A DNA stretch of 64,000 bases from a bacterium (GTDB lineage: Bacteria > Patescibacteriota > Minisyncoccia > Phycocordibacterales > UBA1550). Within the stretch, counting starts at the first letter, position 1, and every line of letters begins with the position of its first letter. Location: positions 4,130 to 68,129 of the forward strand of contig JAUSES010000029.1 in the NCBI GenBank assembly GCA_030649835.1. The letters run 5' to 3'. The notes beneath the pieces are model-generated. The model was given only the letters and a program-made list of their open reading frames with translations. It was not told the origin of the DNA and made no database searches. Made by a program: the position numbers and the translations under genes. Below are positions 1-36,190 of this stretch, in pieces.

Positions 1-3000
1 CCTGTGCCGTTGGTAAAGCGTGCAACTACTCCGGTTGCGGTTTGTGAGACATGCAATCGTTGCTCTGGGGTGGTGGTGCCAATTCCCACATTCACTGCAA
101 ACGCTCCTGTCCCACCCAAAATGAGCGTATTTGAAGCGGTAGCTTGCGCCAAATAACCGATCGCGGCTGCATTGACGAGGTTGTTTGGAGTAGTCACGGT
201 GCCATCAGTGTATCCAGAGCTATATCCAATAAAAGTGTTCTGGTAGCCAACTGTGTTTGCGTTTCCTGATTGATATCCGATTGCCACAGATGAAGTGCCC
301 GTAGTATTGCTTGCTAGGGCTGAGTCTCCGATTGCAGTGTTTTGAATCCCACTTGAATTTGAAAACAATGCCGATTCCCCAATTGCAGTATTAGAATAAC
401 CTATTGTATTTAGATTAAGAGCTGAGTATCCAATTGCTACATTGAAAAAGCCTGTAGTATTTGAAAAAAGCGCTCTCCATCCTATTGCCGTGTTGAAGTC
501 AGAAGAAGTAGCGACATTAAGCGCCTGATATCCTATCGCAGTATTCTGTGAGCCGTCTGAAAGAAGCGCTGCTCCAGCACCTATCCCCGCTAGTGTTGAA
601 AAGTTTGTCGATGAAGCATACAAAATAGTATTTCCTGCCTGCTTGTAGCCGGAGTATTGGTCAGTGTTGATGAAGCCTGAAACGTCGAGTTTGTAGCCGG
701 GGATAGTCGTCCCTATTCCAACATTGTTTGATGAGTAATCATACACGAATCCGTTTGTTTCCACTGCGAATCCTCCAGCAAAGGTCGAGGTGGCGGTGGT
801 GCTTGTTGCCGTAAGGTAGTTGACCGTGGGACTTGTTGAGGAAGTGAGCGTCGTTCCATCAGAATGGAGCCACCCTTGTCCGAAGGATGTTTGACCCGTG
901 CCTCCCTTTGCGACTGTGAGGGTGCCGGAGATTGTGGCAAGAGTAGTCGTCGCCACCCATGCAGGCAAGCCGTTTGAAACACCGAGGACGTATCCACCGG
1001 TACCAATGCTGAGTTTGTTTAATACGTTTGCAGAGCCAGAATAGAGGAGATCACCTGCGGTATAGGTGGAGAAACCGGTACCACCGTAGAACTGGGAGAG
1101 CGTGGAGCTTGCAGAAACGAGACCACTAATTGCTTGGAGTGGGCCAGTCAATGTACCGAGTGAGAAGTTTGAAGTGAAAAGGTTGGTTGAGGATGCAGTG
1201 GTGGAGAAGGAATTTGTTGAGGTTGCGCTCGTTGTCGTTGCATTCGTAGAAACTAGACTCGGGAAGGTGTTGTTTGAAGTGGTAGTTGCGGTGAAGAATG
1301 CCCCCACAACTTCGCCCACGACGGAGAGTTTCGCGTAGGGGGTGGTGGTACCAATTCCCACATTCACGGCGTCCGCTCCAGTGCCACCGAGGACGATCGT
1401 GTTTGATGCACCGACGCGGGCATTTTTCCCGATGGCGGTAATGTTGGTAAGAACAGAGGTGCTTGCAACCGTTTCAGAACGTGAGGCTTGGTAACCAAGA
1501 AACGTTGCAAACGTGTCGATGACGGACCGCTGATCCTGAGTTGTCCCATCTCCATATCCTGCCTGATAACCAAGAGCAGTTCCTCCTTGCCCCGTGGTGT
1601 TTGAATAGAATGTACGAAATCCGTTCACTGTATTGCTTCCTCCTGAAATATTAGAAAAAAGCGAGTCCACGCCGCTAGCCGTGTTACTCCCTCCTGTTGT
1701 ATTAGAGGACATTGCAGACCTACCAATCGCCGTGTTGTTTCCTCCTGTAGTATTAGTTAGGAGTGCATTCATTCCCACACCTGTGTTATTGCCAGCAGTA
1801 GTGTTTGCAAAAAGCGAGCGATATCCAAGAGCCGTATTGCTATCCGACGATGTCGCCACATTAAGCGCCTGGTACCCTATCGCAGTATTCTGTATGCCAT
1901 CAAAAAGGAGTGCTGCTCCAGCGCCATTTCCCACGAGCGTTGAGAAGCTGGTGGATGATGCATATAAAATAGTATTTCCTGCTTGCTTGTAGCCGGAGTA
2001 TTGGTCAGTGTTGATGAAGCCTGAAACGTCGAGCTTGTAGCCGGGGATAGTCGTCCCTATTCCAACATTGTTTGATGAGTAATCATACACGAATCCGTTT
2101 GTTTCCACTGCGAATCCTCCCGCAAACGTGGAAGTGGCGGTGGTAGAAGTGGCATTTATGATATTTGAAGTGATCGTCCCTGCAACCGCAAGCATCGACA
2201 TCGGACTTGTCGTACCAATTCCCACATTCACGGCGTCCGCTCCAGTGCCACCGAGGACGATCGTGTTTGATGCACCGACGCGGGCGTTTTTCCCGATGGC
2301 GGTGCCGTTGGTGAGTGCTGTTGTGGATGCGACAGATGCATCACGTGAGGCTTGAAAACCAAAAAATGTCATAAATGTATCAATCACCGACTGCTGGTCT
2401 AGAGTGGTGCCGTCTCCTACTCCTGCTTGATACCCGATAGCAGTAGAAGAGGCGCCGGTGGTGTTGAACTGTAGGGCACCGTATCCATTTGCGGTGTTGG
2501 AAGAGCCGGTGGTGTTCTGGTTGAGTGAATAACTTCCCTCTGCGGTATTGTTCTCGCCCGTGGTATTAGCAGCTAGAGATACCACTCCGTTTGCTGTGTT
2601 TAAAGAGCCGGTAGTATTGTTAGCAAGCGACTGATAACCGCTTGAGGTATTAGAAGCCCCCGTAGTATTCAAAGTAAGAGCCCTATTTCCGTTTGCTGTA
2701 TTGAAAAGACCAGTGGTATTAGCACGGAGTGCAAAATAGCCATTTGCGGTATTGTAAGAGCCTGTTGTATTTCCCGAAAGAGCCTGCGCCCCTATCGCGC
2801 TATTCTGAATACCACTCGTGTTTGCGGTGAGCGCTATATATCCTACTGCTGTATTGTAGTCGGTAGATGTTGCTGTGTAGAGAGTTTGATAACCTATTGC
2901 CACATTCCCATCTCCCGATGTGTTAGAGTAAAGTGATTGATAACCATTACCAAGATTAAAAAAGCCCGTTGTATTTGAATAGCCTGCTTGATATCCAGTA

Positions 3001-26354: not shown

Positions 26355-26372
26355 AAGTTTTCTGTGTGGGAT
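26355..26372. repeat. direct repeat of the 3' end of tRNA-Gly(TCC) (gtgtgggataggggaa vs gtgcgggataggggaa), ~210 bp distal to the tRNA
   Basis: 16/17 nt match with tRNA positions 26565..26580. Confidence 0.55.
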
Positions 26373-26565
26373 AGGGGAACCGGGGTCAAGTTTCTAAGCT
26401 CGTAAACTTGCTAAGAACTTTCTCCCCCGGGAGTCCAAGACACAAATCTGCTGATTCGTCTGCGCCCTTTCGCAAGCTCAAGGTGCCCGCCTCCGCCTTT
26501 CGATTCTCCGTACCCGCTACAAAATGCAACAACGCAGAAACTTTCGTTTCAGCGTTGGCATTTTG

Positions 26566-26636
26566 TGCGGGATAGGGGAATCGAACTCCTGATTTCAGTT
26601 TGGAAAACTGAAGTTATACCATTTAACTAATCCCGC
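26566..26636 (-). tRNA. tRNA-Gly (anticodon TCC)
   Basis: Cloverleaf: acceptor GCGGGAT/ATCCCGC, anticodon loop TTTCCAA, T-loop TTCGATT. Confidence 0.85.
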
Positions 26637-30349: not shown

Positions 30350-30686
30350 TTGCTACCTCCATTTAAATAATGCACTTCGAAAAAAATAAAAGTTTTATTT
30401 ACACCTACCCTCCCTTACCCTACGCTTGTAGTTGCAAAAGTCAATGTGCCAAAACAGCTTCTTTCTGTGGGTACTGTGGTCACGGATCACTAAGTCTCCT
30501 CATTTGCTCTGCAAATTACGGGGACTAAGTATCCGCTACCCCACCTCGCGGTTTTTGAAAAAATCGGAAAGAAAACTTTTTTTAAAAACATCGCTGCGGT
30601 CGGCACAGCAGTACGGAAGCAAAGCTGTTTGCTTCTTAATTCAAACAGTTACGCAAGCTTATGAGTAACTGTTTGAATTACTGTTG

Positions 30687-30758
30687 TGCCCTCAATAGGA
30701 ATCGAACCTATATTGCAAGCTTCGGAAGCTTGAATCCTATCCATTGAATGATGAGGGC
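30687..30758 (-). tRNA. tRNA-Arg (anticodon CCG)
   Basis: Acceptor GCCCTCA/TGAGGGC, anticodon loop TTCCGAA, T-loop TTCGATT. Confidence 0.8.
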
Positions 30759-31974: not shown

Positions 31975-32320
31975 AGTCGGGGTGCCGTGCCCAAGGCATG
32001 AATCAGCTGATTCAGAATCGAACTCGGCCTAATCTAAATTTCTTATGGAAATTTCCGCGGAAGTGTTTGGACACTTCCGGTTAAAGCTTTAGTCGGGGTG
32101 CCGAGGAATCCCCGCCTGCCATCGCCTGACTGATCCTTACGAAGCGATTGGCAGTGGCGGGCAGGGAACTCGGCCTATATTCTAGTGAGTGAGCGAAAAG
32201 TAAATACCAATTTACTTTTCCGAGCGAACGACGAATATATTGTACCCAGTTATATCTAAATTTCTAAAGGAAATTTCCGCGAAAGCATCTATATGCTTTC
32301 GGTTAAAGAATGTGTCGGGG
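31975..32320. repeat. two degenerate tRNA-Pro 3'-fragment copies (gtcggggtgccg…aactcggcc), each interrupted by an insertion of ~27 or ~60 nt and followed by a conserved ~60-nt hairpin segment
   Basis: Compared against the intact tRNA at 32315..32385; shared downstream block atctaaatttctNaNggaaatttccgcg…ttNcggttaaag. Confidence 0.55.
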
Positions 32321-32385
32321 TGCCGAGAATCGAACTCGGCCTATCTGCTCCCAAAGCAGACGTACTACCGATATACTACACCCCG
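32315..32385 (-). tRNA. tRNA-Pro (anticodon GGG)
   Basis: C1:G72 and A73 as in bacterial tRNA-Pro, anticodon loop TTGGGAG, T-loop TTCGATT. Confidence 0.75.
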
Positions 32386-32647: not shown

Positions 32648-33070
32648 TTACAAAACAAAATTTTCCAAAAACTTTACTTTCGCTGTGCGATTTTTGACAT
32701 CTATCTGCACAGTTATCGCATCAAATACCCACTCAATCTGGTCTTCTGGTCGTCTTTCATACAAATAAACCTGTGTCGTTCGCCTTAAACGCTTTAATTT
32801 ATAAGGGTGCAGATTGTCTTCTGCCCTATATTTATCCGTCCTACTGGAAATACATAGGTCCGACCTATGTGAAGTAGGTATGTTTTCACGTGTAACGCTT
32901 TTTACCTCAATAAAATGCAAAATTTTGCCTTTTTTAGCAATAATATCTATTTCCCCGCATTTTCTGAGAAAATTCTGCTCAATTATTGAAAAACCCTTAT
33001 TTTCTAAGTATTTTTGAGCAATATCCTCTCCTAAACGCCCAATTTTCTGCTTTTCCGTCTTTTCAGCCAT
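32648..33070 (-). CDS. YraN-family (UPF0102) endonuclease
   Basis: GEIDIIAKKGKILHFIEVKS is the YraN signature. Confidence 0.7.
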   Translation of the reverse strand: MAEKTEKQKIGRLGEDIAQKYLENKGFSIIEQNFLRKCGEIDIIAKKGKILHFIEVKSVTRENIPTSHRSDLCISSRTDKYRAEDNLHPYKLKRLRRTTQVYLYERRPEDQIEWVFDAITVQIDVKNRTAKVKFLENFVL

Positions 33071-33453: not shown

Positions 33454-34191
33454 ATGTGCGAATTTGTATTAAATTGTACTCCTGTGTTATACTTTATACG
33501 TATGCGTACAGACAAAGAGAAGGCGACACAGCTTCGTAGGTTTGGTAAAAGCTATCAGGAAATCGCAGGCGAGCTAGGAATCCCTAAAAGCACTTTATCA
33601 GCGTGGTTTGGCGCCTCTTTGTGGTCACAGAAAATAAAAGATGATCTGAATGTTGTTACACATAGAAAGCACACGATCCGCATAGAAGAGCTCAACAAGG
33701 TGCGTGGGGAACATCTTAGGAATCTTTATATTCAAGCACGACATGAGGCACTTGAGGATTTTGAAATTCTAAAATACCATCCAGCTTTTATTTCAGGTGT
33801 TATGCTCTATTGGGGCGAAGGGGACAAGGCTTCCCTTCACCGCGTATCGCTAACCAACACCGATCCAGCAATGATAAGAATATTCATGGGGTTCCTTAAA
33901 GATGTGTGTGGAGTTGAGGAAAAGAGAATTAAGGCCTGGCTCCTTTTATATCCAGATCTTCAAGAATCTGAGTGCAAAAAATATTGGAAAGAGGAGGCAC
34001 ATTTACAAAATGTAATCTTCAATAAAAGCATGGTAATAGACGGGAGGCATAAAACAAAACGTCTAGGGCATGGTGTTTGCACTGTTGGTGTTTCTAGTAG
34101 ATATTTTAAAGAAAAAATGTTATTGTGGATTTCGTTGTTCCCTGATATGCTTGCAAACAGGGAACTATATGGGAAAGATGCGGATATATGA
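33454..34191 (+). CDS. HTH-domain protein with a possible LAGLIDADG-like nuclease domain
   Basis: N-terminal HTH SYQEIAGELGIPKSTLSAWF. LYWGEGDKAS loosely resembles the LAGLIDGDG motif. The true start may be 33502. Confidence 0.4.
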   Translation: MCEFVLNCTPVLYFIRMRTDKEKATQLRRFGKSYQEIAGELGIPKSTLSAWFGASLWSQKIKDDLNVVTHRKHTIRIEELNKVRGEHLRNLYIQARHEALEDFEILKYHPAFISGVMLYWGEGDKASLHRVSLTNTDPAMIRIFMGFLKDVCGVEEKRIKAWLLLYPDLQESECKKYWKEEAHLQNVIFNKSMVIDGRHKTKRLGHGVCTVGVSSRYFKEKMLLWISLFPDMLANRELYGKDADI

Positions 34192-34256
34192 GTACATATA
34201 TCCGCGACATTCGTGAAAAGTGAATATTATGGGTATACTCACTTTGTCACTCATTT

Positions 34257-34327
34257 GCGGATATAATTTAGTGGTAGAATTCCTCGTTGCCAACGAGAGA
34301 GTGGGAGTTCGATTCTCCCTATCCGCA
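34257..34327 (+). tRNA. tRNA-Gly (anticodon GCC)
   Basis: Acceptor GCGGATA/TATCCGC, anticodon loop TTGCCAA, T-loop TTCGATT; terminator hairpin gccccgaaaggggc+T5 at 34337..34362. Confidence 0.85.
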
Positions 34328-34511
34328 CAATTAAAATTGCCCCGAAAGGGGCTTTTTAATTGTGCGGATAGAGCAAGCCTCCTGCTTGGCTTGCGTGGAG
34401 AATCGAAAGCCGGAATATATTTTTGTAATCAAAAATAATGAGGTGGGGTCGAGGGTACTTAGATTTTTGTGAGTAATGCGATACAAAAAGCTTAGTAACC
34501 CGTGACCGAAA

Positions 34512-34527
34512 GCCCTATCCGCACAAT
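34512..34527. repeat. direct repeat of the tRNA-Gly(GCC) 3' end (ccctatccgcacaat), ~195 bp distal to the tRNA
   Basis: Exact 15-nt repeat of 34318..34332. The intervening segment starts with tgcggatagag (tRNA 5'-like) and contains ggagaatcgaaagccgg, shared with the element next to tRNA-Gly(TCC). Confidence 0.55.
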
Positions 34528-34579
34528 AAATATAAAATAGTCAGCCTCTCTTGAGAGGCTGACTATTTTATATTTATTG

Positions 34580-34651
34580 TGCCCACGCCAGGATTCGAAC
34601 CTGGAATAACGGTTTCGAAGACCGTTGTGATATCCATTTCACTACGAGGGC
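34580..34651 (-). tRNA. tRNA-Arg (anticodon TCG)
   Basis: Acceptor with one T·T mismatch, anticodon loop CTTCGAA, T-loop TTCGAAT. Bidirectional terminator hairpin at 34541..34566. Confidence 0.7.
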
Positions 34652-34720
34652 GTACGAAGACTGTACCGCAAAAGTAGTCAAAAGGCAAAAAAAACGGTAT
34701 GCTTTCAATACTTATTAAAT

Positions 34721-36190
34721 ATGGAAATCAACTATCCAATTCCAAAAGAAGTTTCACGTGTAACAGAAACATTGCGAAACGCAGGTTTTGAGGCGTATTT
34801 GGTGGGTGGATGTGTGCGTGACATATTGCAGGGGATTAAGCCAAAGGATTGGGATGCCACAACAAACGCAACTCCCGAGCAAATCCAGGCACTTTTTGAG
34901 AATTCTTTTTATGAAAATGACTATGGCACAGTTGGAATTGTGAATGAAACAGAGGATGAAACACTGAATGTGGTGGAAGTTACTCCTTACCGCACAGAAG
35001 GTGCCTATACCGACAAACGCCGTCCAGACAGCGTTTCGTTTCACGGGAAACTAGATGATGATCTCACAAGACGGGACTTTACTATCAACGCCATTGCATT
35101 TGATGATTCTAAAGGACATCTAAAGGACATTAGCAACGGACTAAAGGACATTAAGGACAAAGTCTTAAGGACAGTGGGAAACCCTGAGGAACGTTTCAAT
35201 GAAGACGCTCTCCGCGTACTTCGTGCAGTACGTCTTGCCACAGATCTTGGTTTCACGATTGAGTCAGAAACACAAAATGCCATTGTTAAGAAAGCGGGGG
35301 ATTTGAAGCATATTTCTATGGAGCGTATTCGTGATGAATTTTCCAAGATGATTATGACAAAGAATCCTATGGTCGGCATTGTGATATGCCAGAAGCTTGG
35401 GCTACTCAAATACATTGCGCCTGATCTTGAGCGGGGGATTGGGGTAGAACAAAACGGCGACCATATTTACACCGTGTGGGAGCACAACCTTCGCGCCCTT
35501 CAGCATGCAGCCGACCGCGACTGGCCACTTCACGTGCGCCTCGGTGCGCTCTTTCATGATGTTTCAAAACCAGAGACTCGCAGATGGTCAGATGAAAAAA
35601 ATAACTGGACATTTTATGGACACGATGTGGTGGGTGGGCGTGTTACAGAAAAAGCTCTTGAGCGTTTGAAATATCCTAAAAAAATTGTGGAGGTAGTTAC
35701 ACTCCTCGTAAGGCACCATTTGTTTTTCTCCGACATAGAAAAGATTACGCTTTCTGCCGCACGTCGCATTGTAAAAAATGTTGGCCCCGACAACGTATGG
35801 GACTTGATGAAGGTGCGCGCCTGCGACCGTATCGGCATGGGTCGCCCAAAAGAAGCGCCGTATCGTTTGCGTAAGTATGAATCAATGATTGAAGAGGCGA
35901 TGCGCGCTCCGGTATCTGTAGGAATGCTCAAGATTGACGGTGTAAAAATTATGGAAGTTACTCGTGAAACACCTGGACCAAAACTTGGATTCATCCTCCA
36001 CGCACTCCTCGAGGAAGTTCTCGACGACCCAGAGCGCAACACTGAAGAGTACCTCGTGAAACGCACTCTCGACCTCGCAAAGCTCCCCATTGATGAACTA
36101 AAAAAACTCGGCGAAGAAGGGAAGGGGAAAAAGGATGAGGCCGAACAAGGAGAACTCGCGGTAATCCGAAAGCGACACGGGGTAAATTAA
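34721..36190 (+). CDS. cca: CCA-adding tRNA nucleotidyltransferase with HD domain
   Basis: Pol-beta nucleotidyltransferase motif (GGCVRD…WDATT), RRDFTINAIA, and HD motif (HNLRALQH…LFHDVSKP). Confidence 0.8.
   Translation: MEINYPIPKEVSRVTETLRNAGFEAYLVGGCVRDILQGIKPKDWDATTNATPEQIQALFENSFYENDYGTVGIVNETEDETLNVVEVTPYRTEGAYTDKRRPDSVSFHGKLDDDLTRRDFTINAIAFDDSKGHLKDISNGLKDIKDKVLRTVGNPEERFNEDALRVLRAVRLATDLGFTIESETQNAIVKKAGDLKHISMERIRDEFSKMIMTKNPMVGIVICQKLGLLKYIAPDLERGIGVEQNGDHIYTVWEHNLRALQHAADRDWPLHVRLGALFHDVSKPETRRWSDEKNNWTFYGHDVVGGRVTEKALERLKYPKKIVEVVTLLVRHHLFFSDIEKITLSAARRIVKNVGPDNVWDLMKVRACDRIGMGRPKEAPYRLRKYESMIEEAMRAPVSVGMLKIDGVKIMEVTRETPGPKLGFILHALLEEVLDDPERNTEEYLVKRTLDLAKLPIDELKKLGEEGKGKKDEAEQGELAVIRKRHGVN

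Follow-up and report, generated by a model that had tools for sequence, protein, structure and literature searches.

The locus after tRNA-Gly(GCC) raises the question of why an intact tRNA gene should be followed, on the same strand, by a second copy of its own 3' end. In the window, by which we mean the whole 64-kb stretch of DNA analyzed here, the exact sequence CCCTATCCGCACAAT occurs at the tRNA 3' end (34317-34331) and again at 34513-34527, and an inverted copy with one mismatch lies between the two on the minus strand (34359-34373). Four matches with two or fewer mismatches were found against 0.10 expected, a number that was reached in none of 100 shuffles. A preliminary description of this DNA had reported the exact 15-nt repeat, which we also observed, although the start-to-start distance is 196 bp and not 195. 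It had also reported a terminator-like hairpin between the tRNA and the element, and this is indeed present: GCCCCGAAAGGGGC (34339-34352) is followed by TTTTT, so that the whole site covers 34339-34357. The 196-bp block at 34329-34524, which ends with the C of the repeated ...CCGCAC, represents a single member of a family of elements, and no credible ORF was found in it. The coordinates of its parts, of the neighboring genes and of the other copies in the window are given in Table 1.

Table 1. Features of the element after tRNA-Gly(GCC), its flanks and the two other family copies in the window.
Feature	Position	Strand	Basis or remark
tRNA-Gly(GCC)	34257-34328	+	ARAGORN; intact, host gene of the element
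T1, tRNA segment from T-loop C56 to discriminator A73 plus C74 (CGATTCTCCCTATCCGCAC)	34310-34328	+	Sequence
Spacer: A-rich trailer, hairpin GCCCCGAAAGGGGC, T-run, trailer complement	34329-34363	+	Terminator-like site, full-transcript fold
5' arm, acceptor part (GCGGATAG)	34364-34371	+	Antisense to CTATCCGC, tRNA 3' strand; inverted-copy search and fold pairing
Optional inserted hairpin, 7-bp stem, 8-nt loop UCCUGCUU	34373-34394	+	Fold
5' arm, T part (GGAGAATCG)	34397-34405	+	Antisense to CGATTCTCC, tRNA T-loop and T-stem
Core junction: AAA, P2, GGA, variable hairpin P2a, GA, GG	34406-34446	+	P2 covariation, RNAalifold
P2 (core)	G34409-C34411 paired with G34442-U34444	+	
P2a, variable hairpin	34415-34439	+	
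P3, long hairpin GGUCGAGGGUACUUAG...CUUAGUAACCCGUGACC	34447-34507	+	Fold, covariation
3' arm (T2): decayed T part GAAAG, then exact CCCTATCCGCACAAT (34513-34527)	34508-34527	+	
Bidirectional terminator, 20 bp	34530-34573	both	Host flank, outside the element; shared with convergent tRNA-Arg(TCG)
tRNA-Arg(TCG)	34579-34651	-	Convergent neighbor
Second copy, after tRNA-Gly(TCC) (26565-26636, -)	26364-26519	-	Model R1, 53.9 bits, E = 2e-13
Third copy, mostly core only, after tRNA-Arg(CCG) (30686-30758, -)	30467-30610	-	Model R1, 31 bits, E = 7e-7

Both arms of the element match the same tRNA segment, T1 (CGATTCTCCCTATCCGCAC), and this rule holds across the family. In consensus members the 3'-arm repeat spans C56 to the discriminator with 18-19 identical nucleotides. 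In the fold of 34364-34527 from the window copy, GCGGAUAG pairs with CUAUCCGC to give a 7-bp acceptor-like stem, and P1 consists of the acceptor part and only 3 bp of the T part. The host tRNA, for which the Rfam RF00005 call covers 34257-34327 (64.6 bits), is 100% identical at six orthologous loci and differs by a single base in L137. The spacer, T1 and the 5' arm together constitute a long, near-perfect palindrome, and its trailer arms are altered in concert in the relative L135. The full-transcript fold resembles a T-loop insertion. The optional hairpin, whose loop has the family consensus AACUGCUU, occupies the position where the D and anticodon arms of a tRNA would be, and is also present in L027, L067, L097, L105, L074, L009, L123 and L131. 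We considered whether this hairpin is an anticodon arm, and reading the sequences gave no register with U33 and a purine at position 37. P3 contains a G.U wobble and a CUUAG/CUUAG segment, both of them conserved.

The segment tgcggatagag (34363-34373) had been compared with the tRNA 5' end. The resemblance exists, but the segment is more aptly seen as the reverse complement of the tRNA 3' end. In L054 the corresponding segment is GAUUCCA and pairs with U.G wobbles, whereas the tRNA 5' strand at that place is GGCCCUA; in L051 it places U opposite A67, whereas the tRNA itself has a C.A mismatch. Because of these differences, we regard the 5' segment as an antisense copy of the tRNA 3' end and not as a copy of the tRNA 5' end.

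The window contains three family copies, following tRNA-Gly(GCC), tRNA-Gly(TCC) and tRNA-Arg(CCG), and model R1 run with filters off detected no others in it. The proposal that both tRNA-Gly genes carry homologous appendages with tRNA-derived ends was borne out: one covariance model matches the two full-length (76.5 and 53.9 bits), and they align beyond the tRNA-derived ends, sharing the exact 18-mer GGAGAATCGAAAG[C/G]CGGA outside the acceptor-derived ends (34397-34414, plus strand; 26492-26509, minus strand). The 3' arm of the second copy, CGGTTCCCCTATCCCACA, repeats the tRNA end with slight decay, and the third copy has neither GGAGAATCGAAAG nor a repeat of the tRNA-Arg end. The cores of the three are 53-61% identical. 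A partial duplicate of the 3' end, of a different kind, was also seen at tRNA-Pro in the window.

Using model R1 at E < 1e-4, we obtained 64 copies of the family from 44 sources, and all of the named sources are Patescibacteria. The unit is about 100-160 nt long. A scan of the genome collection with the shared 17-mer returned 120 loci, a biased sample in that it was seeded with GGAGAATCGAAAG and the scanned DNA consisted of 8-kb pieces. When the window is added to these 120 loci, 41 of 123 motif occurrences lie no more than 200 nt downstream of a tRNA on the same strand. Matches of the 17-mer outside the CPR are attributable to chance, given that about 280 were expected in 596 Gb and none exceeded 25 bits. 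The specificity for tRNA-Gly that had been suggested was not upheld, as family members occur behind at least 12 species of tRNA and behind one tmRNA, and the third window copy itself follows a tRNA-Arg. In other words, this is a family of ORF-less structured elements in the immediate same-strand 3' flank of Patescibacteria tRNA and tmRNA genes.

Each unit is composed of an optional hairpin or terminator, an antisense 5' arm, a three-way-junction core and usually a sense 3' arm, and the core has the layout P1-GAAA-P2-P2a-GG-P3. P1 is a continuous helix of 7 + 5 + about 5 bp that has the discriminator as its end and is paired in most members. The tRNA identity of the arm ends abruptly at position 73/74, and the nucleotides of the T-loop are either paired or replaced by the three-way junction. 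The middle of the element had been described as a degenerate tRNA-like segment; instead, it is a conserved, covarying three-way-junction RNA fold, and neither ARAGORN nor Rfam calls a tRNA there. In the alignment of the 64 copies, which had been recruited by model R1, paired cells amounted to 84.2%, compared with 68.8% in shuffles, and the covariation score was 0.388, compared with 0.145 in shuffled alignments; none of 500 shuffles reached the observed value, and slid controls scored 0.04-0.08. The middle pair of P2 covaries (AU in 22, CG in 22 and GC in 16 of the 64 copies), and the conserved G.U of P3 is found in 52 of the 64. The junction nucleotides of the core are conserved across Saccharibacteria and Paceibacteria. 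Tandem copies and decayed copies that retain only the core also occur. These results show that the family is real and that its fold is backed by covariation. G.U and U.G pairs outnumber A.C and C.A pairs (162 versus 77), and this favors the tRNA-sense strand as the folded strand. It is from sequence features only, namely strand, position and these wobble pairs, that we infer expression of the element as RNA. A terminator-like hairpin with a T-run separates the tRNA from the element in 23 of 46 copies.

Comparison among host genes shows that the arms are fitted to the tRNA or tmRNA that precedes them. The upstream tRNAs include those for Gly, Pro, Arg, Leu, Cys, Glu, Met, Ala and Tyr. The longest stretch shared by the tRNA tail and the 3' end of the element is 15-19 nt for Gly, Cys, Glu, Met, Leu, Pro and Arg, and 12 nt for Ala. 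The T part of the 5' arm reads CCAGGATTCG after Arg, GTGGGACTCG after Leu and CGAGAATCG after Pro. In every case the 5' arm is complementary to the host tRNA and is never a copy of the tRNA 5' strand, and in the single copy adjoining a tmRNA the antisense arm is perfect over 16 nt. The pairing of the arm frequently runs past the discriminator into the genomic trailer, and an encoded CCA is copied into the element only sporadically. Of 30 copies with a decayed 3' arm, 25 have a 5' arm whose pairing with the real tRNA end is the better one, and the reverse is true in one. In L105, the cores at tRNA-Gly and tRNA-Pro are 100% identical and the arms differ, each fitting its local tRNA. Thus, cores are exchangeable between loci, with the arms remaining local.

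We also compared the orthologous site in relatives, where an ORF and tRNA-Gly(GCC) face tRNA-Arg(TCG) and the gene for the CCA-adding enzyme. Synteny of this gene with the element-rich Arg/Gly tRNA cluster was seen at 10 loci. The site is empty in L129, L130 and L138, with 52-73 nt separating the same two tRNAs. Only the Gly side is occupied in the window, L133 and L134; only the Arg side in L131 (identical to L128), L123 and L136; and both sides in L135 and L137. Close relatives thus either have or lack the unit as one discrete block between direct repeats of the tRNA 3' end. The filled block of the window is 91% identical to that of L133, compared with 73% for the adjoining ORF DNA, and the downstream flank cannot be aligned; beyond the element, in the region of 34530-34573, the flank is entirely different between relatives. 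P3 has undergone a compensatory change from G-C to A-U between the window and L133.

To examine whether the element belongs to a known class, we searched several resources. Rfam 15 at the gathering threshold returned only tRNAs in the window, and a permissive scan (E <= 10) of 34200-34700 added only weak chance matches (Thr-leader, miRNA) that arose from the terminator hairpin. None of the Rfam families, self-cleaving ribozymes, Y RNA, tmRNA, RNase P and HEARO among them, came near its gathering threshold on the element. A tRNA or tRNA pseudogene is not supported, as ARAGORN and Rfam call only 34257-34328 and nothing in 34329-34528 even at E <= 10. A group I intron was likewise rejected: there is no Rfam match at E <= 10, the upstream tRNA is complete, and the repeat cannot be placed in any register that provides a 5' splice-site U together with a terminal G. 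A retroviral-type primer-binding site does not fit either, since the sequence upstream of GCGGATAG is AATTGT, which complements the genomic trailer CAATT and not CCA. P2 is no K-turn, having a bulge of 1 nt instead of 3. A MITE is contradicted by the 53-61% core identity in the window and by terminal repeats that vary per locus as the local tRNA end. The inverted repeats that close a retron msr-msd are present, but a reverse transcriptase was seen neither among the window ORFs scanned with Pfam nor by sequence inspection of the ORF clusters of 43 loci.

Linked proteins gave a similar picture. The nine window ORFs scanned with Pfam either are genes of ordinary chromosomal type or gave no match, and when 416 ORFs from the 43 loci were clustered, only syntenic housekeeping genes emerged (UPF0102/YraN, HU, RNase Y, CCA-adding enzyme, LepA and ClpP); in both sets, no transposase, integrase or reverse transcriptase was consistently linked. 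Scans of viral contigs with the 18-mer and with a gapped core pattern gave one chance match each (12.8 and 13.3 bits), with no tRNA close by. As for the marks of an integrated element, tRNA 3' direct repeats at both ends and empty sites in relatives were found, and integrase and cargo are absent. A literature search that included the motif sequence found no description of the element, the nearest being group I introns of the anticodon loop (PMC13011429). The family is thus apparently undescribed so far.

We propose, with a probability of roughly 0.45, that this is an ORF-less structured RNA element, mobile or rapidly turning over, that homes to tRNA-like 3' ends. Both its mobility and its homing mechanism are what we infer from the patterns above. 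The element would act as a selfish, mobile or rapidly turned-over unit and would spread probably by recombination, in which the invariant tRNA gene supplies homology on the left and the element's own 3' repeat supplies it on the right; DNA uptake is a possible occasion for this. Recombination of the two repeats would lead to precise loss, and the arms may be re-templated on the local tRNA through gene conversion or template switching across the palindrome. The element may be transcribed together with the tRNA through read-through; about half of the copies have no intervening terminator-like site. In such an RNA, the 3' arm would capture the antisense 5' arm to make a helix like an acceptor/T-stem minihelix; failing this, the 5' arm would instead pair with, and unfold, the 3' quarter of the tRNA itself. 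The conserved core would be the module under selection, either a factor-binding site or a catalytic or processing fold. Several points count against this proposal. A terminator-like site in 23 of 46 copies would limit read-through, a right homology arm of 12-19 nt is short for RecA-type recombination, and recombination alone leaves the conservation of the antisense arm and the core unexplained. The presence/absence pattern could reflect repeated precise losses instead of gains. In addition, the 91% orthologue identity, along with at least one compensatory change, is explained as well by purifying selection on an RNA useful to the host as by recent spread.

Such an RNA, a small RNA capped by a tRNA minihelix in which the helix of the arms imitates the acceptor stem of the neighboring tRNA stacked on its T-stem, is an explanation that we consider unlikely. 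RNase P, RNase Z or exonucleases and the CCA-adding enzyme would excise it from the tRNA co-transcript and finish its ends, and its core might bind a conserved CPR factor of tRNA or translation metabolism. The continuous P1 ending at the discriminator, the sharp stop of tRNA identity at 73/74, the covarying fold with junction nucleotides kept between Saccharibacteria and Paceibacteria, and the synteny of the CCA-adding enzyme gene with the Arg/Gly tRNA cluster at 10 loci are all in its favor, as are orthologous copies that are much better conserved than adjoining coding DNA and carry a compensatory change. However, a single orthologous site shows empty, Gly-side, Arg-side and double states, many copies have the antisense 5' arm without the acceptor part of the 3' arm, and the pairing often extends into the trailer, which a tRNA-like end does not need; moreover, the T-loop is absent and an encoded CCA is copied only sporadically. 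The antisense arm is instead central if the element is a cis device on a read-through pre-tRNA, a possibility that we find doubtful. Here the 5' arm would pair with the tRNA from T-loop to trailer in a duplex of up to about 40 bp that unfolds the tRNA and could flag it for RNase III, the 3' arm being a decoy and the core choosing between the pairings. This swapped structure is precisely what minimum free energy folding predicts for the complete transcript (-161.5 kcal/mol, z = -15.6), the complementary match between the 5' arm and the real tRNA end is better preserved than the 3' arm (25 versus 1), and the trailer arms of the palindrome co-vary between relatives. Yet terminator-less copies were expected to be richer in intact 3' arms, and no association between the spacer terminator and 3'-arm integrity was found (p = 0.53 and 0.77, the latter for counts of 10/23 and 12/23). 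The same tRNA also occurs without the device in close relatives, a ligand or protein sensor has no support, and co-transcriptional folding would form the tRNA cloverleaf first.

It is also conceivable, though we judge it quite improbable, that the element works at the DNA level, its hairpins serving a trans-acting recombinase in single-stranded DNA during transformation or replication, with the direct repeats as the recombination core. Comparable cases of folded single-stranded DNA are integron attC sites, CTX phage attP and IS200/IS605-derived palindromic elements. The discrete block between direct repeats of the target, the known empty sites, the strand-specific structure and the lack of an encoded protein agree with this, G.T is the best-tolerated mismatch in DNA too, the terminator-like hairpins could shield the element from transcription, and one relative has a tyrosine recombinase gene a few kb away. 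On the other hand, no recombinase is consistently linked, the viral contigs contain no copies, and the folded arms rebuild only the right half of the T-arm palindrome used by T-loop-type integrases; the purine-rich junctions (GAAA, GGA/GA) and the fixed G.U are typical of RNA tertiary motifs, and half of the copies, those with no intervening terminator-like site, would presumably be co-transcribed with the tRNA. Direct repeats from T-loop to 3' end are the classical signature of integration into tRNA genes, which raises the idea that the elements are inert leftovers, either scars left where tRNA-integrating islands were excised or deleted, or tandem tRNA duplicates that have decayed. The existence of decayed family copies and the other type of partial 3'-end duplicate at tRNA-Pro in the window accord with it. 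However, scars would share no covarying three-way-junction fold across classes of a phylum, would lose an antisense arm tuned to at least 12 tRNAs and a tmRNA, and would not hold 91% identity beside unalignable flanks. This idea is largely refuted by the covariation, the pairing of the 5' arm with the real tRNA end and the 91% block identity, and we regard it as highly improbable.

More speculatively, the family may be a class of programmable, protein-less RNAs, in which a core scaffold carries a guide of about 18-20 nt that base-pairs with a selected tRNA or tmRNA between its T-loop and its discriminator. This guide would steer either homing of the element itself, in the manner of a mobile ribozyme or guide RNA, or an enzymatic action on the tRNA (cleavage, ligation, modification or sequestration), and the 3' sense copy would mimic the substrate or product. 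We think this somewhat unlikely; if it holds, such a guide-plus-scaffold RNA could provide a natural, reprogrammable handle for specific tRNAs. If the element is mobile, as we propose, it would represent a new route by which a gene-less element homes to the most conserved genes of a genome, and it would bear on old ideas of tRNA 'top halves' as tags of replicating RNAs. Patescibacteria account for a large share of bacterial diversity and have tiny genomes, and dozens of conserved 100-160-nt non-coding elements on the tRNA and tmRNA genes of such genomes need an explanation. The elements may also add to contig breaks at tRNA clusters, and such breaks were seen in two relatives.

To our knowledge, no described class of RNA or mobile element unites a conserved scaffold with both an antisense arm against the 3' quarter of the neighboring tRNA and a sense copy of that quarter. 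Elements integrated at tRNA and tmRNA genes at the T-loop sublocation (islands, prophages and integrase-less cis-mobilizable derivatives) are similar in that the insert lies directly 3' of an intact gene, is bounded by a direct repeat from T-loop to 3' end and has empty sites in relatives. However, the insert described here is only about 100-200 bp long and gene-less, and it carries both the att-like segment in antisense and an RNA fold with covariation; furthermore, one family occupies at least 12 tRNA species with re-matched arms and was found in none of the viral contigs scanned.

ORF-less group I introns are unusually frequent in the tRNA genes of Patescibacteria and have a patchy distribution; their insertion sites are in the anticodon loop (35/36 is one such position), and they match the group I models of Rfam and self-splice (PMC13011429). 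They resemble our element in being small, structured, protein-less, tied to tRNAs and patchily distributed in the same phylum, but the element leaves the tRNA intact, follows it, is half the size and has no Rfam match. The primer-binding sites of retroviruses and LTR retrotransposons share with it about 18 nt of complementarity to one particular tRNA at its 3' end (the 3' strands of T-arm and acceptor). Those sites pair with the mature CCA end and sit in a retroelement far from the tRNA gene, whereas the element adjoins the tRNA gene, complements the trailer instead of CCA and has no linked reverse transcriptase.

Another comparison is with tRNA-like end modules, including the tRNA-like domain of tmRNA, the bacterial Y RNA YrlA, the 3' tRNA-like structures of plant viruses, MALAT1 mascRNA, plant mitochondrial t-elements and the tRNA-miRNA units of gammaherpesviruses. 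Enzymes of tRNA maturation process such modules, some of which are transcribed jointly with another RNA. As in our element, one or both RNA ends imitate the acceptor/T 'top half' of a tRNA and end at the discriminator; in contrast to them, the element has no T-loop, these nucleotides being base-paired, its pairing often enters the trailer, and it mimics its particular neighboring tRNA and not one fixed identity. Finally, MITEs, IS200/IS605-derived palindromic elements and integron attC sites are likewise small, non-coding, hairpin-rich, repeat-flanked, strand-specific and trans-dependent. The present family differs from them in that its terminal inverted repeats are the target sequence and vary with the target, its copies within a genome are not near-identical, and its conserved features resemble RNA junction motifs.

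The exact 15-mer CCCTATCCGCACAAT, which covers the 3' end of tRNA-Gly(GCC) plus 4 nt of trailer, recurs downstream of the gene, as the preliminary description had reported, and an inverted copy with one mismatch is also present. With up to two mismatches, CCCTATCCGCACAAT has four matches in the window versus 0.10 expected. The appendages of the two tRNA-Gly genes share the exact 18-mer GGAGAATCGAAAG[S]CGGA, and therefore align beyond their tRNA-derived ends; the homology proposed between them thus holds.

Features of the window at the tRNA genes and element copies. R1 is the covariance model of the family; rows without positions lie, in the order listed, between the two CCCTATCCGCACAAT repeats.
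Feature	Position	Strand	Remark
R1 match 2	26364-26519	-	53.9 bits; behind tRNA-Gly(TCC)
tRNA-Gly(TCC)	26565-26636	-	
R1 match 3	30467-30610	-	31 bits; behind tRNA-Arg(CCG)
tRNA-Arg(CCG)	30686-30758	-	
Partial second copy of tRNA-Pro T-arm and 3' end	32092-32178	-	downstream of tRNA-Pro(TGG)
tRNA-Pro(TGG)	32314-32385	-	
Gene recurring beside the tRNA cluster	32648-33070	-	
245-aa ORF	33454-34191	+	directly upstream of tRNA-Gly(GCC)
tRNA-Gly(GCC)	34257-34328	+	
CCCTATCCGCACAAT, first occurrence	34317-34331		
CCCTATCCGCACAAT, inverted copy	34359-34373		
R1 match 1	34387-34524	+	76.5 bits
CCCTATCCGCACAAT, second occurrence	34513-34527		
Strong bidirectional terminator	34530-34573		between element and convergent tRNA-Arg(TCG)
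tRNA-Arg(TCG)	34579-34651	-	73 nt, CCA-less
Gene recurring beside the tRNA cluster	34721-36190	+	
A-rich trailer			
Terminator-like hairpin GCCCCGAAAGGGGC			followed by TTTTT
Complement of trailer			
GCGGATAG			
Hairpin			7-bp stem, 8-nt loop
GGAGAATCG			followed by two more hairpins

A motif scan with GGAGAATCGAAAGNCGG against one genome per prokaryotic species gave at least 120 loci. Chance alone would by our own arithmetic give a 16-base word about 280 times in 596 Gb, and the matches outside the CPR are mostly of this kind. Among the listed loci and the window, 41 of 123 matches had a tRNA on the same strand no more than 200 nt upstream; nearly all of these 41 come from Patescibacteria (Saccharibacteria and the Yonath-, Kaiser-, Campbell-, Lloyd- and Paceibacteria groups). 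From 26 tRNA-linked matches (alignment A2) we built R1, and searched the loci retrieved with this single motif (L numbers, 8 kb each). R1 detected 64 copies at E < 1e-4 over 44 match-bearing sources, these E-values being rough because the model was calibrated quickly; many of the copies lack the seed motif and stand behind other tRNAs. The window holds no copies beyond the three in the table, even with filters off. The hosts are the tRNAs for Gly (GCC/TCC/CCC), Pro (TGG), Arg (TCG/CCG), Leu (CAA/TAA), Cys, Glu (TTC/CTC), Met, Ala and Tyr, and in one case (L104) a tmRNA (RF00023), so that the restriction to tRNA-Gly suggested earlier has to be given up. Tandem pairs of copies behind one tRNA occur at L072, L005, L066, L050 and L094.

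Two of these copies deserve separate description. The tmRNA gene of L104 (2327-2874, minus strand; Rfam 50.2 bits) is 548 nt long, a length that suggests a possible intron; the copy behind it (2143-2284, minus strand) has a 5' arm, GAGATGGGGAGAATCG, that is fully complementary to the 3' end of the tmRNA. The window copy behind tRNA-Arg(CCG) is mostly core only and lacks the GGAGAATCGAAAG motif; a hairpin with the loop AACAGCUU lies upstream, and the 3' end of the copy, ACAGTACCCACA, looks closer to the tRNA-Gly acceptor strand than to that of tRNA-Arg.

On the tRNA strand, in the 5'-to-3' direction, the consensus opens with a 5' arm that is antisense to the 3' strand of the acceptor; then come an optional hairpin (loop AACUGCUU), an antisense T part (e.g. 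GGAGAAUCG), a GAAA junction, helix P2, GG, helix P3, and a 3' arm that is tRNA sequence from T-loop C56 to the discriminator. P2 has three base pairs (G-N-C with G-N'-C) enclosing GGA, the variable hairpin P2a and GA, and P3 is a long hairpin starting with GGUCGCG and ending with CGUGACC. In the 64-member alignment, the share of paired cells was 84.2% (68.8% in shuffles), double changes occurred in 24 of 30 pairs, and the covariation score was 0.388, a value that 0 of 500 shuffles reached (shuffles gave 0.145, slid partners 0.04-0.08); these figures are somewhat inflated because the alignment was fitted to R1. A MAFFT-based set of 26 agrees with this picture. The middle pair of P2 is AU in 22, CG in 22 and GC in 16 of the 64 copies. 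In P3, 52 of 64 copies keep one particular G.U pair, and in total there are 162 G.U/U.G against 77 A.C/C.A; the strand that folds, be it RNA or single-stranded DNA, is therefore the tRNA-sense one.

The unusual property of the family is that its arms match the host tRNA. Whichever tRNA species lies upstream, the 3' arm repeats its last 15-19 nt, with identity from C56 to position 73/74. For example, the tRNA-Pro tail TTCGATTCTCGGCGGCCCGA at L011 is followed by an element ending in ...GACCGATTCTCGGCGGCCCGAA, and at L053 the tRNA-Leu tail TCGAGTCCCACCCTGGGCAC and the element 3' end are identical. The 5' arm is complementary to this same segment: GCCCCTGCCAGGATTCG faces CGAATCCTGGCAGGGGC in Arg, GTGGGACTCG faces CGAGTCCCAC in Leu, and CGAGAATCG faces CGATTCTCG in Pro. 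The resemblance to the 5' end of the tRNA that had been noted before does not amount to a copy, as two loci show. At L054 the arm is GAUUCCA, with U.G wobble pairing, where the tRNA 5' strand is GGCCCUA; at L051 the arm has U opposite A67, where the tRNA itself has a C.A mismatch. Among 30 copies with a decayed 3' arm, the 5' arm pairs better with the tRNA in 25 and with its own 3' arm in one. The GCC copy in the window is of this decayed type: GGAGAATCG still fits CGATTCTCC of the tRNA, and the 3' arm there is CGAAAGCC.

We also compared the orthologous locus (245-aa ORF, tRNA-Gly(GCC), convergent tRNA-Arg(TCG), CCA-adding enzyme) in relatives fetched through its two flanking proteins; the window belongs to a Patescibacterium of the Paceibacteria type, and the CCA-enzyme homologues with source names come from Nomura- or Yonathbacteria. 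The tRNA-Gly is 100% identical in six of seven relatives compared, L137 being one base off. The intergenic region is empty in L129, L130 and L138 (52 or 73 nt, a single terminator), holds a Gly-side element in the window, L133 and L134, an opposite-orientation element belonging to tRNA-Arg in L131 (=L128), L123 and L136, and both in L135 and L137. This pattern could reflect losses as well as gains. Host flank, different in every genome, restarts directly after ...CCGCAC, and the element is thus a discrete 196-bp block between the tRNA-end repeats. Between the window and L133, the block is 91% identical, the neighbouring ORF DNA 73%, and the downstream flank unalignable; one of the differences is a compensatory change in P3, from G-C to A-U. 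Both trailer arms of the palindrome have changed together in L135. At L105, the tRNA-Gly and tRNA-Pro copies have 100% identical cores (GGAATCGAAAG to CGATTC), with unlike inserted hairpins and unlike arms, each fitting its own tRNA. Across the family, the nearest relative of a core is often at a different tRNA in another genome.

Several further features of these loci were noted. In L135 (1038-1110) and the same region of L137, a nested insertion of about 70 nt with two hairpins lies within the Gly-side element, between the AACUGCUU hairpin and GAATCG, replacing part of the antisense T arm. The tRNA-Arg(TCG) of L128/L131 (1370-1445, minus strand) has 76 nt, an encoded CCA and the acceptor GCGCCCG, and is of another type than the window gene at the orthologous position; tRNA and element may have been replaced together. 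The contig of L123 ends at the element and that of L124 50 nt from tRNA-Arg, which suggests that element repeats may break metagenome assemblies. The 245-aa ORF has no Pfam match; it is 70-76% identical (amino acids) in relatives sharing the inverted tRNA-Gly orientation, and relatives lacking it (L125-L127) carry tRNA-Gly on the other strand. Among 43 Patescibacteria loci, several genes recur beside the Arg/Gly/Pro tRNA cluster in which elements abound: those for the nuclease-like UPF0102/YraN (14 loci), HU (12), RNase Y (10) and CCA-adding enzyme (10). This recurrence spans Saccharibacteria and Paceibacteria and is probably old synteny; two of the products, CCA enzyme and YraN, are candidates for a partner of the element that acts in trans. 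Bacterial tRNA-Gly usually has U73. The tRNA-Gly genes of the window (34327 and 26566) and of the retrieved loci have A73, usually without encoded CCA, and this may point to a eukaryote/archaeal-type GlyRS. The partial copy of tRNA-Pro (ataggccgagttc ... attcctcggcaccccgac) carries within its T-loop an inserted hairpin of about 55 nt and is followed by a copy of the tRNA-Pro trailer hairpin; since R1 does not match it, we regard it as another kind of tRNA-end duplication.

Members of the family are thus gene-less units with a strand-specific structure, attached to tRNA-like 3' ends; their arms match the host, and relatives either have or lack the whole block. We tentatively favour a selfish or rapidly turning-over element (probability roughly 0.45). 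Such an element would be inserted and precisely lost with the tRNA gene and its repeated 3' end as recombination substrates. Gene conversion from the neighbouring tRNA, or else template switching across the palindrome, would rematch the arms of the element at each site. Read-through would produce its RNA; the terminator-like site before the element is missing in 23 of 46 copies. This RNA would need to fold on itself, keeping the antisense arm from invading the tRNA: at equilibrium, the full transcript is predicted to adopt the alternative fold, in which about 40 bp join the T-loop-to-trailer segment of the tRNA to the 5' arm, and the 3' arm pairs with the tRNA 5' strand. The conserved core may bind a factor or may be catalytic.

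The element might instead be a host ncRNA that is capped by a tRNA minihelix and processed by RNase P, RNase Z and CCA-adding enzyme, which we consider unlikely. A cis device settling the fate of read-through pre-tRNA seems improbable; one of its predictions failed. The folded strand could also be single-stranded DNA serving as a recombination site, which is very improbable, and that the copies are inert scars is hardly credible.

We found no ORF within the element, and neither its surroundings nor the recurrently linked genes included an integrase, reverse transcriptase or transposase; the viral contigs scanned contained no true family copy. No Rfam 15 family matches the element and the searchable literature holds no description, so that the family appears new when set against Rfam 15 and a full-text literature that is thin in subscription journals. 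The group I introns of Patescibacteria tRNA genes are located in the anticodon loop (PMC13011429) and are different from the element described here, which lies directly 3' of its host gene.
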